DNA of 61,307 nucleotides from Bacillota bacterium (GTDB lineage: Bacteria > Bacillota > Clostridia > Lachnospirales > Lachnospiraceae): the NCBI GenBank assembly GCA_023416695.1, contig JAEZGY010000064.1:1-61307 (forward strand). Direction: 5' to 3'. Below the pieces are notes generated by a model. That model was not told the DNA's origin. It searched no databases and was given only the letters and a program-made list of their open reading frames with translations. Position 1 is the stretch's first letter. The number at the start of each line of letters is the position of its first letter. The position numbers and the translations under genes were made by a program. Shown piece by piece: positions 2,422 to 28,565 of the stretch.

Positions 2422-3174
2422 ATGAAATTAATATCATGGAATGTAAATGGAATACGCGCCTGTGTTGGTAAGGGCTTTCTTGATTATTTTAAACAGGTTG
2501 ATGCTGATATATTTTGTATACAGGAAAGTAAGGTTTCTGAAGGACAGGTAGTATTAGAACTTGATGGATATCACCAATATTGGAATTATGCAGAGAAAAA
2601 AGGGTACTCTGGTACTGCTATATTTACTAAGACAAAACCTCATTCTGTGTCCTATGGGATTGGGATTGAGGAACACGACCATGAGGGAAGGGTGATTACT
2701 GCAGAATTCGAAGAGTATTATGTAGTAACCGTGTATACCCCTAATTCTCAGGATGGGTTAAAACGTTTAGATTACCGCATGGAATGGGAGGATGCTTTCT
2801 TAACTTATTTAAAGGGTTTGGAAGAGAAGAAGCCTGTCATTTTCTGTGGGGATCTTAATGTGGCTCACAAGGAAATTGATCTAAAGAATCCCAAAACAAA
2901 TCGTAAGAATGCAGGCTTTTCTGATGAAGAAAGGGCAAAGATGACTGCACTACAAGAGGCAGGGTTTATCGATACCTTCCGATACTTCTATCCTGATTTA
3001 GAGGGTGCGTACTCTTGGTGGTCCTACCGTTTTAGCGCTCGTGCAAAGAATGCGGGATGGCGTATCGATTATTTTCTCGTATCTAAGCAGTTAGAGAATC
3101 GTTTAGTGAATGCTGCTATTCATACAGAGGTTATGGGAAGTGATCACTGCCCAGTAGAGCTTATTATACAGTAA
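2422..3174 (+). CDS. xth: Exodeoxyribonuclease III (AP endonuclease, Xth family)
   Basis: [13 protein letters not shown] start. Motifs DIFCIQE, YWWSYR and GSDHCP are typical of ExoIII. Confidence 0.85.
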
Positions 3175-3189
3175 TAAGGAGGATTAACC

Positions 3190-3372
3190 ATGAAGGGAAA
3201 GACCAATTGTGAATGTTGTCTTAATTACATTTATGATGAAGATTATGACTGTATGATATGTGATATGGATCTAGACGAAGATGAGATGGCTAAATACCTT
3301 ACATCCACCTTTGATCATTGTCCTTATTATAAGATAAATGATGAATATAGGATTGTTCGAAAACAAATGTAG
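3190..3372 (+). CDS. Small acidic Cys-rich protein (CxCC...CxxC, zinc-ribbon-like), function unknown
   Basis: 60-aa ORF. A strong AAGGAGGA RBS sits 15 nt after the xth stop, so it is translationally coupled. Seven Cys residues. Confidence 0.5.
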   Translation: MKGKTNCECCLNYIYDEDYDCMICDMDLDEDEMAKYLTSTFDHCPYYKINDEYRIVRKQM

Positions 3373-3456
3373 AGGATAAACATTTTCATTTTTATTCTTA
3401 TTGTGATACAATAGCCTTTAACATAAGGAGTATTAGGAGAGAAGGAGATGGTCAAT

Positions 3457-4290
3457 ATGTTTGTCGATTTACACAACCATAGTAACTACTCTGACGGAAC
3501 GATGTCACCCCAGGAAATCTTAAGGGCTGCCAAAAAAGCTCATGTATCGATACTAGCTATCACAGATCATGATGTGTTAGATGGCTCCCGTGAACTTTTA
3601 AAGCTCAGTGAAAAGGACAATATCCATGTTATTTCTGGTGTAGAGATTAATGCATTGGAGGGAAAGGATAATATCCATGTACTAGGGTATGGGGTGGATT
3701 TAGAGAATAAAGTTTTTTGTGAGAGGTTAGAGGAAAATAGACGGAAGTTAGATGAAATAAGCATCATAATGATAGGTAAGATGGAGGCGGCCGGCTGCTC
3801 AGTATCTATAGAAGAATTTAACAAACAGAGCTACAACCAAGAACTTGGCGGGTGGAAAGCTTTGTATTATCTAATGGACAAAGGAATTACTAGGAGCTTA
3901 ACAGAAGGCTTTGCTCTTTATGAGAAGTATGAGTGTGGTTACGATATTGTAGATTTTCCCAGTGTAAGAGAGGTTGTTCGTTGGATTCATCAAGCGGGAG
4001 GTATTGCTATTTTAGCTCATCCAGGAGTATCACTTCTAAAGGAGGATATGACGTTACCACAGTTTGGCATAAAACTTGAGGAGTATCTTAGTTTTGGTAT
4101 AGATGGTGTAGAATGCTATTATCCAAAGCATTCTAATGATATTACAAATATCTGCCTTGATATATGTAGAAAGCATGGACTTTCTATTACTTCAGGCTCA
4201 GACTGCCATGGAACATTTCAAAAATCTAGAATAGGGGAGCTAAGAATGAGACTAGAGTATTTACAACTTCCAGCTTGTCTACTGAAATAA
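3457..4290 (+). CDS. PHP-domain phosphoesterase (polymerase/histidinol-phosphatase family)
   Basis: FVDLHNHSNYSDG ... AITDHD ... AHPG are PHP metal-binding motifs. The start is moved to the second ATG (3457) for RBS spacing. Confidence 0.7.
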   Translation: MFVDLHNHSNYSDGTMSPQEILRAAKKAHVSILAITDHDVLDGSRELLKLSEKDNIHVISGVEINALEGKDNIHVLGYGVDLENKVFCERLEENRRKLDEISIIMIGKMEAAGCSVSIEEFNKQSYNQELGGWKALYYLMDKGITRSLTEGFALYEKYECGYDIVDFPSVREVVRWIHQAGGIAILAHPGVSLLKEDMTLPQFGIKLEEYLSFGIDGVECYYPKHSNDITNICLDICRKHGLSITSGSDCHGTFQKSRIGELRMRLEYLQLPACLLK

Positions 4291-4307
4291 AATTAAGGGA
4301 TGTTATT

Positions 4308-5096
4308 ATGAAGAATTTTAAAATAATACTAATACTTTTTGTAGTACAGACTTTCTATATGGCGACTATTCTGCTATCCTGTGTATGGGATAGTACTATG
4401 TTTATGGCCCTTAGGGTGCTCACGTACTTTACGTGGGGGTTTTCCCTTTATGTAGTCAGTCATAGTATTAGAAGATATGAACGATCTAAAAAGAATAGAA
4501 GAAGGAGTTTTATTATTTATGCCATAGGCTGTATTTCCGTCCTTACTGCTCAATTTATTTCTGCAGCAAAGCCATCTTTTATGATCGCCTTAATTTTCAC
4601 TATATTTTTATTTGTCATTTATTTGGTAGAACTTGTGCTTGTGTTTGATATTAGAAAAAGTATGGTAGATGAGATTATACTGGAATTAGAAAACAATCCA
4701 AATAAAGAGTTATTTGAAGGGAACACGAAGGAAAGACATATTAATAATCATAGTCTTTTGGTAACTGCTCTGTTCTTTGGATTATTGTTTACCTATCTTG
4801 GTGTCCCAATTCTATGTAGTCAAGACTATTTTCTGGGTACTAAGGCGTTGATTTTCCTATACGCTTGGGATATAGCCATCCTGCTTATGAGATTGTATGT
4901 AGTAAGAAAGGGATTTTCTATGTTTTTGAAGGAGATTCTATGCTTTCAAGTAAGTATGATGTGCCTATCCATTGGTATTTCAAGATTGGACTTAGCTATG
5001 GAGCAGACTATTTTTCAATTGTTTTGTATTCTCTTTATTACACCAATTATTTATGACATGGTAAGAGATATCAGAAGAGTATCTAAAGGGAAATAA
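4308..5096 (+). CDS. Polytopic membrane protein, function unknown
   Basis: Multiple hydrophobic helices. AAGGGA RBS 7 nt before ATG 4308. The ORF-track start at 4275 overlaps the PHP gene. Confidence 0.45.
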   Translation: MKNFKIILILFVVQTFYMATILLSCVWDSTMFMALRVLTYFTWGFSLYVVSHSIRRYERSKKNRRRSFIIYAIGCISVLTAQFISAAKPSFMIALIFTIFLFVIYLVELVLVFDIRKSMVDEIILELENNPNKELFEGNTKERHINNHSLLVTALFFGLLFTYLGVPILCSQDYFLGTKALIFLYAWDIAILLMRLYVVRKGFSMFLKEILCFQVSMMCLSIGISRLDLAMEQTIFQLFCILFITPIIYDMVRDIRRVSKGK

Positions 5097-5177
5097 CATG
5101 TAATTTACTTTTAATATGACGATATTATTGTAAAGAAATATACTTCTTTGTTAGTGAGAAGATTGGTGGTGAAGGCC

Positions 5178-6017
5178 ATGAAAAAACGTAAAGAAAAACA
5201 GAAAAGAGCAATGGTATGGTTTGTACTGTTCGTAATAATCTTGGCACTGGATTTGTATTTTGTAAAATCTTTTATAGAGGATAGTGTCGTTGCCAACACA
5301 GATGATTATTTATCAGAGGATGTTATGATTAATGAAGCCAACACAGATAATCTTAGTGGTAAGGATGCTACAGGCCAGAGTCAAGGAGCTATTGCGGGAA
5401 GTAATAATAAGGTGTTACTAGATGTACCTTATATTAATCAAACCAAGCATTATATCAATGCCTGTGAAAGTATTTCTACGGTTATGGCCTTACAGTATCT
5501 AGGGATTGATATTAGTGTAGATGATTTCATTAATAAATACTTGGATATAGGGGAAGTTCCATATCACGATAAGAATGGCGTATATATCGGTAGTAGTCCA
5601 TGGGAAGTGTTTCCTGGAAATCCAAGGGATGAAACTGGCTGGGGTTGTTATGCCCCTGTAATCGTAAACGCTCTAAACAAGTTTATAGATAAAGATACTT
5701 ATGATGTGCAGGAGTTATATAATGAAAGAATTACAACACTTTGCTCCGAGTATATTGATAATGGGATTCCAGTTATCTTTTGGGCTACCATAAACATGCA
5801 GGCGCCTTATAAGGGTTCGACCTGGAAACTGAAAGATAGTGAGGGAGATTTTACATGGATTCGGCCCATGCATTGTGTCCTTTTAGTAGGATATGATGAT
5901 GAATATTACTATTTTAATGATCCTTGGGAGAAAAAAGCTTGTAAGTATAAGAAGGCTATTGTGGAGAGAGCCTATAGAGGAATGTATCAGCAAGCGGTTG
6001 TTGTAACCAAAAAATAA
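5178..6017 (+). CDS. Membrane-anchored C39-like (papain-fold) peptidase domain protein, YvpB-like
   Basis: N-terminal TM anchor. Candidate catalytic Cys lies in YINQ...NACESISTVMALQYLG and His in RPMHCVLLVGYDD...NDPW, the pattern of the Peptidase_C39_2 family. The start is uncertain: the ORF-track start at 5148 is TTG, and 5178 is the first ATG. Confidence 0.5.
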   Translation: MKKRKEKQKRAMVWFVLFVIILALDLYFVKSFIEDSVVANTDDYLSEDVMINEANTDNLSGKDATGQSQGAIAGSNNKVLLDVPYINQTKHYINACESISTVMALQYLGIDISVDDFINKYLDIGEVPYHDKNGVYIGSSPWEVFPGNPRDETGWGCYAPVIVNALNKFIDKDTYDVQELYNERITTLCSEYIDNGIPVIFWATINMQAPYKGSTWKLKDSEGDFTWIRPMHCVLLVGYDDEYYYFNDPWEKKACKYKKAIVERAYRGMYQQAVVVTKK

Positions 6018-26484: not shown

Positions 26485-26583
26485 AACTAAACTTGTATTA
26501 TATTTCTAAATGCCATATAATGGAATCTAGTTATTGAAACTACAACAAGTGGTTTTAAAAGTGAATAGAAAGGCAGATAGAAT

Positions 26584-27168
26584 ATGAATACAGGTAAAGT
26601 GGCAAAACTAATACGAACGATAACCTTAGCGCCTATTATGGCGCTATTGGCATTGACTGTTTTATTTAATTATACAGAAGATGTGTTTGGTAATACCTAT
26701 GAATATGTAATGGCAGTGTTTTTCTTGGTTATATTACCAATACTAGCATATCCACTGCAACCTCTAATTCCTTCTTATAAATCTAAGGGACGAGATGGTC
26801 AGAGACAATTGGCCATTGTAATGGCTGTCATTGGGTATATGGGAGGAATTACAGTTGCTCTTATAACTTCAGTTCCAGTAAAATTAAAGGTTATATACTT
26901 TACTTATTTTATTTCAGGTGTCTTAATCTTGGTGTTTAATAAGTTATTAAAGGTAAAAGCTAGTGGACATGCTTGTGGTGTTGTTGGGCCTATGGCAATT
27001 TTGGTATATTGTTTAGGGCCATGGGCTTTATTAGGGATACTGATTCTTTTTTTAGTATACTGGGCATCACTGAAGATGGAAAGACATACTGTTTCTCAGT
27101 TATGCTTCGGTTCTGTCATTCCAGTAGCAGCTCTTTTTATCTCTTATGAAATGTATCATATGGGCTAA
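26584..27168 (+). CDS. Small polytopic membrane protein, function unknown
   Basis: 194 aa, 4-5 TM segments. Convergent with the RT gene, overlapping its 3' end by 32 nt. Confidence 0.45.
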   Translation: MNTGKVAKLIRTITLAPIMALLALTVLFNYTEDVFGNTYEYVMAVFFLVILPILAYPLQPLIPSYKSKGRDGQRQLAIVMAVIGYMGGITVALITSVPVKLKVIYFTYFISGVLILVFNKLLKVKASGHACGVVGPMAILVYCLGPWALLGILILFLVYWASLKMERHTVSQLCFGSVIPVAALFISYEMYHMG

Positions 27169-28369
27169 TATTTTGGGATTCTTTAAAATATTCATTTACT
27201 AGACTTTTATAGCCCCATGCTTTTAACTCGTCATAGGAGATACGATAATTGCCTTTATAATGTCGTCCTGTGATTGTATAACGAATGTATTCCTGCATAT
27301 AAAGATCAATTTCATGAAGCCCTGTGCTGACAGTAAGATGAGGAAAAAACCAACGGTTCCAGGTAAACTCATCCTCTCCACCACTGCCATAGAACTTACG
27401 ATTCATGGCATTGATGAAGCCTATTGCAGCCTTATCAGGAGAAAGGTTTTTGCGCATTTGCCATAGTCTAAGTGCATTAGCCTTTCTTTTTATTTTCGCT
27501 TTTATTTTTCTTTTTGTCACGTCTGACAAATCAATTGCTCCATTGTAATAGGTAAACCCAAGAAAGCTCCATGGTTCTCCAGGTGAGGTAATGGCTACCT
27601 TATCGGGGTTAATCTGAAGTTTTAGTTTTAACAGATGTTCTTCAAAAATGGCGATGTAACTCTCTAGTTCTTCTTTTGTATCTGCAAAAAATAGAATATC
27701 ATCGGAATAACGAAAATACGGAATTTGTTTTTCAGCAAAGTAGTCATCTACTTTCTTAAGGTAGATATTAGCAAAAAAGGGGGAGATTGGTGTGCCAGCC
27801 ATTGCACCATGATGATCTATACAGACCTTTCCATTAACAGTAACACGGTCTTCCTTAAGAATATGAAAAAATAGGTTATACAGAGCCTCATCCCTCTCTT
27901 TTAGGAAACTTAACGAAGAGAGCAACTCATCAATATCGATGCTATTAAAGTAGTTATGTATATCAGCTTTATAGCAATATTTTTTACTAAAGGAGGTATT
28001 GTTTTTAAAATGTACCATGGCATTCCGAATTCCATAAAAGCGGCGAAAGGCGTAGCAGTTAGGACTTAACACATCATTATATACATAAAGCTGATGAGCA
28101 ATGAATTTGAGAATGATATTATCTTCTTTTTCAAAGGAGTAGACAATTCGCTTTTTTCGTGTGCCTGTCTTATTAATAGTTAACTTTCTTGGAAGGGTAG
28201 AAGGAAACATAGCAGATTTTATAAGTCCATCATAATGAAGATAACGCTTGTTATTTATAAATGTTATAATCTCTTGTTCTTCCTGTCTACTCAAATGTTG
28301 AAGTTGTTGTTTGTCCGACAGAAAGGCTTCCCAGTATGTTTTATCTGTAATTGTATCTAAAATAGACAT
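27137..28369 (-). CDS. Reverse transcriptase (RT fingers/palm motifs 1-7 plus thumb-like C-terminal extension), retron-like, not a group II intron or DGR RT
   Basis: RT motifs 1-5 are KRIVY, NAMVH (retron-type NAxxH), CYKADIHNYFNSI, AGTPISPFFANIYL and YFRYSDDILFF. Motifs 6/7 are INPDKV and SFLGF. A lysine-rich helix (KRKIKAKIKRKANALRL) and a GF..MNRKFYG motif follow. Strong AAGGAGG RBS. Confidence 0.85.
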   Translation of the reverse strand: MSILDTITDKTYWEAFLSDKQQLQHLSRQEEQEIITFINNKRYLHYDGLIKSAMFPSTLPRKLTINKTGTRKKRIVYSFEKEDNIILKFIAHQLYVYNDVLSPNCYAFRRFYGIRNAMVHFKNNTSFSKKYCYKADIHNYFNSIDIDELLSSLSFLKERDEALYNLFFHILKEDRVTVNGKVCIDHHGAMAGTPISPFFANIYLKKVDDYFAEKQIPYFRYSDDILFFADTKEELESYIAIFEEHLLKLKLQINPDKVAITSPGEPWSFLGFTYYNGAIDLSDVTKRKIKAKIKRKANALRLWQMRKNLSPDKAAIGFINAMNRKFYGSGGEDEFTWNRWFFPHLTVSTGLHEIDLYMQEYIRYTITGRHYKGNYRISYDELKAWGYKSLVNEYFKESQNISPYDTFHKR

Positions 28370-28407
28370 AGGTACCTCCTTTTTATCCTTTTAAAAAAGG
28401 ACATAAA

Positions 28408-28546
28408 AAAAGAAAGAGAAAGTGCTTTGAAGTGCAAAAGCTATGCTTTGCATACTAGACTGAACATGTCCCGGTTACCCGTAAAACCTCTTTAGAACAT
28501 GCTTCATCCTTCACGGGTACAGCGTTGCTGCATTTCTCTTTCTTTT
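28408..28546 (-). ncRNA. Candidate RT-associated structured ncRNA: a 111-nt core flanked by a perfect 14-bp inverted repeat (a1/a2-like)
   Basis: The repeat arms are AAAAGAAAGAGAAA (28408-28421) and its exact reverse complement TTTCTCTTTCTTTT (28533-28546). Internal hairpins include TACCCGT/ACGGGTA and TGCAAAGC-ata-GCTTTTGCA. No ORF. The segment ends 38 nt before the RT start. Confidence 0.35.
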
Positions 28547-28565
28547 AAACAATATTATATATTTC

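Follow-up and report, generated by a model that had tools for sequence, protein, structure and literature searches.

In a stretch of 61,307 nucleotides from a Bacillota bacterium of the Lachnospiraceae (contig JAEZGY010000064.1 of assembly GCA_023416695.1; hereafter the window), we examined a reverse transcriptase (RT) gene that an earlier reading of the letters alone, the sequence-only reading, had singled out for its mixed motif signature. The gene adds a new member to UG26, a known but functionally uncharacterised family, and it is preceded on the same strand by a structured RNA (RT-5) and by a gene for a small nuclease-fold protein, the accessory. This order of accessory, RNA and RT is kept in dozens of diverged lineages of gut Clostridia. 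We propose, with a probability of roughly 60%, that the three parts form a compact cassette of the defence type in which the RT would copy its own RNA into DNA.

The open reading frame (ORF) lies exactly where the sequence-only reading had placed it, and the peptides quoted there were all recovered from its translation: YAFRRFYGIRNAMVHF (aa 106-121), AGTPISPFFANIYL (191-204), YFRYSDDILFF (218-228), QINPDKVAITSPGEPWSFLGFTY, VTKRKIKAKIKRKANALRLWQMRK and GFINAMNRKFYG (317-328). A search of the protein database returned 2329 relatives at E<=1e-10, and the sole Pfam domain was RVT_1 (aa 65-273, E 2.3e-24). Across 65 homologues, the palm motifs were all kept with their catalytic residues intact, and about 90 positions besides the catalytic YSDD were invariant. 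Judged by these matches and this conservation, the ORF is a genuine RT gene and not a chance reading frame.

Among PADLOC profiles, the RT matched RT_UG26 (PDLC03764) over almost its full length (E 1.1e-154, 513 bits, aa 1-399, profile positions 1-397 of 398). The runners-up were the generic RT model (115 bits), UG4 (112), UG27 (107) and UG17 (98), with weaker matches to Drt9 (72 bits) and to retron RT profiles (55-64 bits); divergent loci also gave UG26 as their top profile. The NCBIfam models for group II intron RTs, retrons, Drt2-5 and AbiA were all far under cut-off. The best of these matches was TIGR04416 (group II RT/maturase), at 110 bits against a cut-off of 300, while retron_St85_RT scored 71.5 against 235 and Drt2 scored 52 against 390. 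On these profile scores, used in place of a position in a reference RT phylogeny, the protein is assigned as a full-length member of UG26, in Class 2 of the UG/Abi RTs. It is not a retron, group II intron or group II-like (G2L), diversity-generating retroelement (DGR) or classical Abi RT. The sequence-only reading was therefore right to place it outside these classes, but not in supposing that it fits no class at all, given 513 bits for UG26 against 115 for the next model. That reading had also named a characterised RT family with the same accessory gene as the finding that would speak against it: family membership is clear and the accessory is Vsr-like in fold, but UG26 is a named family that is itself uncharacterised.

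UG26 is one of the UG/Abi "unknown groups" (UG) and belongs to Class 2, RTs without another known domain; it was named by Mestre et al. 2022 (PMC9226505). Their UG26 set held 35 representatives, of which 9/35 had a YcjD/Vsr-like neighbour (COG2852, cluster 1531), and they reported no RNA partner (PMC9226505). Among the matches listed in our searches there were at least 120 UG26 homologues, all at least 53% identical, and by this sequence count the family is far larger in gut metagenomes than in the 2022 set. A newer DRT name for UG26 was considered and dropped, as DRT11 designates work on UG5.

The mixed signature that drew attention to the gene stems from a single sequence. The retron-type NAxxH is present in this RT but is coincidental and not a family trait: position 116 is D in 49/65 homologues and N in 8/65, and position 120 is R in 36/65, K in 15/65 and H in 5/65. 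The family form of the region, G-V-K-D-A-I-R-R, is an ordinary motif 2a. YSDD and FLGF did prove invariant or nearly so across the family (FLG is invariant), although FLG(F) is an ordinary group-II-like motif 7. Two further blocks were invariant or nearly so, GFIxAMNxKFYG and TGRHYKGNYRI...WGY.SLV.EYY. Within the near-C-terminal EYY at 393-395, Y394 and Y395 are nearly invariant in the family; the window RT has Y394 and F395. The C-terminal extension was correctly described as basic, with 24 K+R against 14 D+E (net charge about +10) and a strongly basic starting helix (283-310, 11 K+R against 1 D+E), but it spans 137 aa (274-410) and not about 110. This region had no family match, and the likeness drawn between GFINAMNRKFYG and the RGWxNYY motif of maturases found no backing, as Pfam gave no maturase domain (GIIM) in the RT at E<=1.

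An AlphaFold2 model of the RT built on the homologue alignment had a mean predicted local distance difference test (pLDDT) score of 91. In Foldseek comparisons, the best template modelling (TM) scores were to GsI-IIC RT (0.70-0.76) and G2L4 (0.71); DRT9 (0.57-0.63), DRT2 (0.55) and retron RTs (0.42-0.45) scored lower, though all three were significant matches. The sequence-only reading had suggested setting such a model beside retron and GsI-IIC RTs, and the group II enzyme was clearly the closer of the two. PDB sequence searches with the RT gave the same ranking. Superposition of the whole chain on GsI-IIC RT and G2L4 indicates that the C-terminal extension is a group-II-like thumb-type region, which bears out the thumb/X parallel drawn earlier.

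We next turn to the RNA. Between the RT and accessory ORFs lies a 196-nt spacer that folded better than its shuffles (z = -3.2), and spacer DNA was 71-84% identical between loci whose RT proteins share just 55-58%. RF03026 (RT-5 RNA) was the sole Rfam match at gathering score in the whole window, scoring 56.4 bits where 45.7 is the gathering score and aligning along the whole model, positions 1-104 of 104 (28419-28522, minus strand). We assembled 11 genome loci and 80 metagenome loci with RT relatives and built a covariance model for the element from ten loci; this model scored the window RNA at 135 bits and recovered the element from the RT strand of 86 loci. When RT loci were dereplicated into lineages at 90% RT identity, the element was present in 46/46 lineages with sufficient upstream DNA, and its distance to the RT start had a median of about 40 nt (range -3 to 318 nt). 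By this co-occurrence, the RT-5 RNA is a constant partner of UG26 RTs, beyond the published description of UG26, and we consider it very likely to be a functional partner of the enzyme. RT-1 to RT-19 have been known as motifs near RT genes, possibly in retrons (Weinberg et al. 2017). RT-5 had likewise been placed near RT genes in general, whereas here it is tied to one RT group; its Rfam model covers 104 nt, whereas the conserved element extends to about 150 nt and adds helices P1 and P2 and a covarying pseudoknot.

Pairing and covariation of the RNA were computed on 69 distinct rows. Standard pairs filled 96.4% of cells, compared to 45-53% when the partners were slid by 1-3 columns, and compensatory changes were found in 43/49 pairs; the observed values were reached by no shuffle. 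P1, a closing helix of 14 pairs (98% paired), lies outside the Rfam RT-5 model. Ten of its pairs show compensatory changes, nearly all from A-U to G-C. The helix is near-invariant in sequence, with purines alone in one strand and pyrimidines alone in the other. As the alignment reads, this constraint exceeds what pairing needs. In P2, the 5' arm and loop (28524-28531) fall outside the Rfam match, whose 5' end (28522) lies inside the 3' arm. The pseudoknot, which pairs into the loop of P5, has compensatory changes in 6/6 pairs and is 96% paired (for example C-G:32 vs U-A:31, and G-C:37 vs A-U:26); it covaries even though the alignment was built with a model that lacked it. The nested structure of the Rfam model likewise omits P1, P2 and the pseudoknot. 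The only length-variable site is the P4/P5 junction, with 5 nt in the window and up to 58 nt elsewhere. In the single-stranded J6/1, between P6 and the P1 3' strand, UUCAAA showed no variation in the first ten loci and almost none across all 64 distinct sequences, and a UG directly after the P1 5' strand was nearly invariant. Among the G-U pairs, one is invariant and others are frequent, and these fix the RNA on the strand of the RT.

At many loci, a reading frame without stop codons extends across the RNA (for example L006:5809-7215 and L024:3677-5263, and proteins P0028, 462 aa, and P0100, 437 aa). ORF callers consequently lengthen the RT N-terminus by 20-120 aa, and the non-coding RNA (ncRNA) is hidden in annotations, a frequent artefact. 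Several loci depart from the usual layout. In L096:3001-3876 and L097, the accessory is cut down to 107 aa and the RT-5 RNA behind it is intact (124 bits, 3333-3485); in 6 contigs of this kind there was no RT, merely ORFs of 76 and 115 aa. There the RNA may outlast the enzyme or serve in trans. In L013:767-5215, accessory and RNA (767-1506) lie 2.5 kb from the RT (3992-5215), with a Fur-like 123-aa ORF and a 678-aa iron-sulphur/hydrogenase-like ORF in the gap, by insertion, rearrangement or misassembly; if the layout is real, the RNA need not sit in the RT leader. In a Lachnospiraceae metagenome-assembled genome (MAG; L010:5792-6451), the RT has decayed to fragments corresponding to aa 124-147, 188-217 and 293-396.

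The third component, the accessory, recurs in this position and orientation: homologues were present in 34/42 evaluable lineages (about 81%), and the median gap from their ends to the RNA was 25 nt. It was the only recurrent neighbour in 52 lineages, the rest being local housekeeping synteny. Three divergent accessory proteins that we looked up were all followed by an RT-5 RNA (124-133 bits), and at the 2 loci checked with PADLOC the top RT profile was UG26. The protein evolves fast: where the RTs of two loci are about 56% identical, the accessories share 24-31%. Its family counts 119 representatives when clustered at 90% identity, and 520 at 50%. It matched nothing in Pfam, PADLOC, PHROG or NCBIfam, and no PDB entry by sequence. 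A Pfam "Ribonuclease" match (E 0.0075) was set aside as spurious; it lay inside a low-complexity linker and appeared in 2/13 members only.

By fold, the accessory has the PD-(D/E)xK core, alpha-beta-beta-beta-alpha-beta, and matches the Vsr repair endonuclease. A sequence link to E. coli YcjD and Vsr was sought with hhalign and rejected (probability <1%). Across 73 sequences, E78 in helix 1 is the only conserved residue of the canonical active site (69/73): position 109, the site of the catalytic D in beta2, is S30/D21/T18, and beta3 (119-125) holds no conserved acid, although K120 is found in 48/73. On this pattern, the accessory may be a catalytically degenerate nuclease-fold protein. Its conserved N-terminal peptide, which may resemble the N-terminal amphipathic helix of PspA/Vipp1, is joined to the C-terminal domain by a disordered S/T/N-rich linker; Vsr, DUF559 (YcjD) and VRR-NUC nucleases lack both the peptide and the linker.

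The features of the cassette are collected in Table 1. A consensus scan found no comparable promoter site in the spacer between accessory and RNA, and there was no terminator-like site in 26900-29400. The two sigma-70-like sites upstream of the accessory are, by their consensus match, the probable promoter of the whole cassette, and with none before the RNA and no terminator the three parts are probably made as one transcript.

Table 1. Coordinates of the UG26 cassette and its parts, numbered along the window
Feature	Position	Strand	Remarks
RT ORF (UG26 reverse transcriptase)	27137..28369	minus	410 aa, ATG start
RT ribosome-binding site AGGAGG	28375-28380	minus	5' of RT ATG
RT N-terminal helical extension	aa 1-64, nt 28178-28369	minus	
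RT fingers/palm	aa 65-273, nt 27551-28177	minus	
RT basic thumb-like C-terminal region	aa 274-410, nt 27140-27550	minus	
Catalytic YSDD	aa 221-224, 27698..27709	minus	invariant in 65/65 homologues
Structured non-coding RNA (Rfam RT-5, extended at both ends)	28399..28549	minus	covariance model, covariation
P1 5' strand AAAAGAAAGAGAAA, all purine	28533..28546	minus	pairs with 28408-28421
P1 3' strand UUUCUCUUUCUUUU, all pyrimidine	28408..28421	minus	runs on into three U (28405-28407)
P2 hairpin GCAGC-AAC-GCUGU	28519..28531	minus	5 pairs, all compensatory, 96% paired
Pseudoknot 5' strand ACCCGU	28513..28518	minus	pairs with 28477-28482 (ACGGGU), P5 loop
P3-P4-P5 stacked hairpin	28457..28509	minus	apical loop 28477-28484 holds pseudoknot 3' strand
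P6 hairpin, conserved GCAnnGCU loop	28433..28452	minus	7 pairs, all compensatory
J6/1 single-stranded UUCAAAGCAC	28422..28431	minus	candidate template or RT contact, role inferred
Accessory ORF, 175 aa	28566..29093	minus	upstream of RNA
Accessory C-terminal domain	aa 64-175, nt 28569-28904	minus	restriction-endonuclease-like alpha-beta3-alpha-beta-alpha fold
Accessory N-terminal peptide MGF(L/F)D(N/K)LLK	aa 1-9, 29067-29093	minus	M1, G2, F3, L7 >=90% conserved
Sigma-70-like promoter site TTGTCA-17-TATAAT	29202..29174	minus	consensus match, putative
Sigma-70-like promoter site TTTACT-17-TATAAT with TG	29150..29122	minus	consensus match, putative

The cassette runs opposite to the genes around it, and over 27-29 kb the GC skew falls to about zero. 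Around it lie genes for a GNAT protein, an AI-2E transporter, MarR, two ABC exporters, a membrane protein, a lipoprotein-like ORF, MoxR and a transglutaminase. The RT 3' end overlaps the convergent membrane-protein ORF (26584-27168) by 32 nt (27137-27168), and in L011 a 92%-identical RT fragment is flanked by the same membrane-protein neighbour (90% identity). On the other side, a perfect TTGACA-17-TATAAT on the plus strand (29196-29224) faces the lipoprotein-like ORF at 29285-29920, back to back with the promoter-like sites of the cassette, in a region of 28.5% GC (29001-30000). Further on, 30038-34598 (plus strand) holds an operon-like trio: a MoxR-type AAA+ ATPase, a 395-aa membrane protein without a Pfam match and an 801-aa transglutaminase-like membrane protein. 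A defence island was considered and discarded, the sole PADLOC match in the flanks being a trivial MarR/CARF helix-turn-helix. Elsewhere, genome records give the hosts as Acetatifactor, other Lachnospiraceae, Oscillospiraceae and unclassified Bacillota MAGs. In two metagenomic loci (L092:1835-5026 and L093; Logan SRR31228076 and SRR31239416), an accessory of 145 aa, an RNA (2324-2477) and an RT (2571-3866) are followed by an extra 387-aa ORF with a PF13930 non-specific DNA/RNA endonuclease domain, which overlaps the RT stop by 4 nt. By its domain content, this ORF could possibly be a lineage-specific effector.

How such a cassette might work is suggested by its best-studied relatives. DRT2, DRT9 and DRT10 each take a neighbouring ncRNA as both scaffold and template and repeatedly copy a short part of it (PMC12632851, PMC12483538), and it is because of this analogy that we propose the RT-5 RNA as template of the UG26 RT, an assignment that we favour only slightly over its negation. 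The cassette would be transcribed as one RNA; the RT would bind the RT-5 element as a scaffold and copy a short fixed segment into complementary DNA (cDNA), probably repeatedly; and the cDNA product, with or via the accessory, would stop growth or phage replication, the accessory acting as effector or sensor. One candidate template is the conserved single-stranded UUCAAAG (28425-28431) 3' of P6, with P6 as the boundary element, and another is the U/C-rich P1 3' strand with its U tail. The primer could be a conserved tyrosine such as Y394/Y395, or an RNA 3' end. Whether the system is anti-phage we put at even odds, again by analogy.

Several observations weigh against this proposal. Mestre et al. 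judged the defence association of UG26 inconclusive, and they predicted UG4 and UG27, the closest PADLOC relatives, to be non-defence (PMC9226505). Their 2022 study was the only paper on UG26 that we found in the searchable literature, which yielded no experiments on the family. The modelled RT is closest in structure to group II intron and G2L enzymes, not to DRTs. In silico analysis identified no template, primer or product. A DRT2-style endless ORF in cDNA of the concatenated RNA was tried and rejected: the median open length was 150 nt against 129 nt in shuffled controls, strand and frame varied between homologues, and the window RNA was open for no more than 93 nt. The accessory is missing in 8/42 lineages, and across its 73 sequences the canonical PD-(D/E)xK catalytic triad is not conserved. 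The window flanks hold housekeeping genes only, with no defence or mobility genes among them. A phage or plasmid origin was also discarded, as no UG26 member was found in IMG/VR, INPHARED or PLSDB; the best INPHARED match to the RT was partial at 28% identity, and PLSDB gave other RT families only.

The position of the RNA also invites a retron-like interpretation, which we consider improbable. Here RT-5 would be an msr/msd-type RNA with P1 as its a1/a2 repeats, a conserved G just after the P1 5' strand would prime by its 2'-OH, and the resulting multicopy single-stranded DNA (msDNA), a branched RNA-DNA, would restrain the accessory. The RNA does sit immediately before the RT gene, with a long inverted repeat to close it and the nearly invariant UG after the 5' strand of P1, and the trio of RNA, RT and small effector recalls tripartite retrons; Weinberg et al. 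(2017) speculated that many RT motifs serve retrons, and retron RT structures are among the significant Foldseek matches. However, this family has no general NAxxH, its invariant FLG replaces the VTG of retrons, and it scores 71 against 235 bits with retron_St85 and 55-64 with the PADLOC retron profiles compared to 513 for UG26. The TM scores point the same way (0.42-0.45 to retron RTs vs 0.70-0.76 to group II RTs), and the RNA is without the long hairpin of an msd.

Equally improbable, in our estimate, is a role for RT-5 as a cis-acting leader, bound by the RT or another factor to set translation or stability of the RT messenger RNA, as in domain IVa of group II introns. An element in the 5' untranslated region, typically some 40 nt short of the RT start codon and probably co-transcribed with the RT, would suit such a role. 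Its distance to the start codon is nevertheless loose (-3 to 318 nt), and in L013, as assembled, it lies 2.5 kb and two genes away. A search of the RNA for a conserved terminator/antiterminator or a hairpin sequestering the ribosome-binding site found none, and a decayed locus retains the RNA without the RT. A pseudoknotted fold of about 150 nt with near-invariant blocks exceeds the usual needs of autoregulation, and all characterised Class 2 relatives use their RNA as template.

Somewhat less probable still is that the enzyme is a domesticated group-II-like RT for host DNA repair or damage tolerance, like G2L4, with a Vsr-fold repair partner and no defence role. The best structural matches (GsI-IIC RT and G2L4), the Vsr-like fold of the accessory and the chromosomal location of the cassette among housekeeping genes, not on mobile elements, would all be in keeping with this. 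Against it, the RT sequence belongs with UG26 and not with G2L, the catalytic residues of the accessory are not conserved, and the patchy distribution, unrelated chromosomal contexts and decayed copies are unlike those of core repair genes; a strictly associated structured RNA would also be left without explanation. A degenerate group II intron, with the RT an ex-maturase and the RNA a leftover intron domain, is very unlikely: TIGR04416 is the top NCBIfam match and group II RTs are the nearest solved structures, but that match falls well short of its cut-off (110 vs 300 bits), there is no GIIM match, no group II intron RNA family was found at E<=10 in 26500-29600 or at gathering score window-wide, and the conserved RNA flanks the gene on one side only and is under strong purifying and compensatory selection in 46/46 lineages.

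The locus is also of wider interest. UG26 appears as a three-part unit and not a lone RT, abundant in gut Lachnospiraceae and Oscillospiraceae, and the orphan Rfam motif RT-5 is now linked to a specific enzyme family. The Class 2 UG RTs studied so far have each revealed an unexpected form of DNA synthesis, a new gene for DRT2, poly-dA for DRT9 and a telomerase-like reaction for DRT10. With about 2.2 kb and defined helices, residues and segments, the UG26 cassette makes product and function directly testable. A more specific version of the proposal, which we regard as speculative and rather unlikely, is that UG26 is a distinct, unnamed defence-associated RT system with a fixed family-wide template (UUCAAAG or the U/C-rich P1 strand), whose product would be sensed or bound by the degenerate nuclease-fold partner. 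If so, one short or repetitive DNA, perhaps a purine-rich repeat, would be made throughout the family. The Class 2 RTs would thereby gain a fourth kind of product as well as a new effector logic, in the first such system from gut Clostridia.

Among known systems, published UG26 is the direct match, with the same full-length profile, an RT without another known domain, Firmicutes-type genomes and possibly the occasional Vsr-type neighbour; the nuclease-fold accessory, however, accompanies about 81% of the lineages here compared to the 9/35 reported. Group II intron and G2L RTs (GsI-IIC, G2L4) share the N-terminal extension, thumb-like C-terminus, FLG motif 7 and YxDD palm, but the UG26 RT has no intron RNA or maturase match, scores under the family cut-off and has its own dedicated small RNA. 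DRT2 (UG2), an RT with an ncRNA whose rolling-circle cDNA creates the neo gene, is similar in its upstream stem-closed ncRNA, its lone RT without an extra domain and its fold (TM 0.55); it differs in that the UG26 RNA has no conserved endless frame on either strand and the RT stays far below the NCBIfam Drt2 cut-off (52 vs 390). DRT9 (UG28) pairs an RT with an ncRNA and makes tyrosine-primed poly-dA from a conserved U-tract (PMC12483538). It resembles the UG26 cassette in an ncRNA directly upstream of the RT, a conserved RNA with a U-rich tract, C-terminal tyrosines (EYY) and the fold match to our model (TM 0.57-0.63), but in UG26 the U/C tract is paired in P1 and not in a loop, and the Drt9 profile gives only 72-92 bits. 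Hexameric assembly is a further feature of DRT9. DRT10 (UG17) combines an RT, an ncRNA and a SLATT protein and makes tandem repeats from an A-B-A' template beside a boundary hairpin, with a C-terminal serine/tyrosine primer (PMC12632851). Both are tripartite, with a Class 2 UG RT of about 410-456 aa and an RNA whose closing stem encloses smaller stem-loops, and UG17 is among the next-best PADLOC profiles of UG26 RTs (98-102 bits). The DRT10 partner is a SLATT membrane protein, whereas that of UG26 is a soluble nuclease-fold protein; the order is RNA-SLATT-RT in the former and partner-RNA-RT in the latter; and the template loop of DRT10 is poorly conserved, in contrast to the conserved candidate templates of the UG26 RNA.

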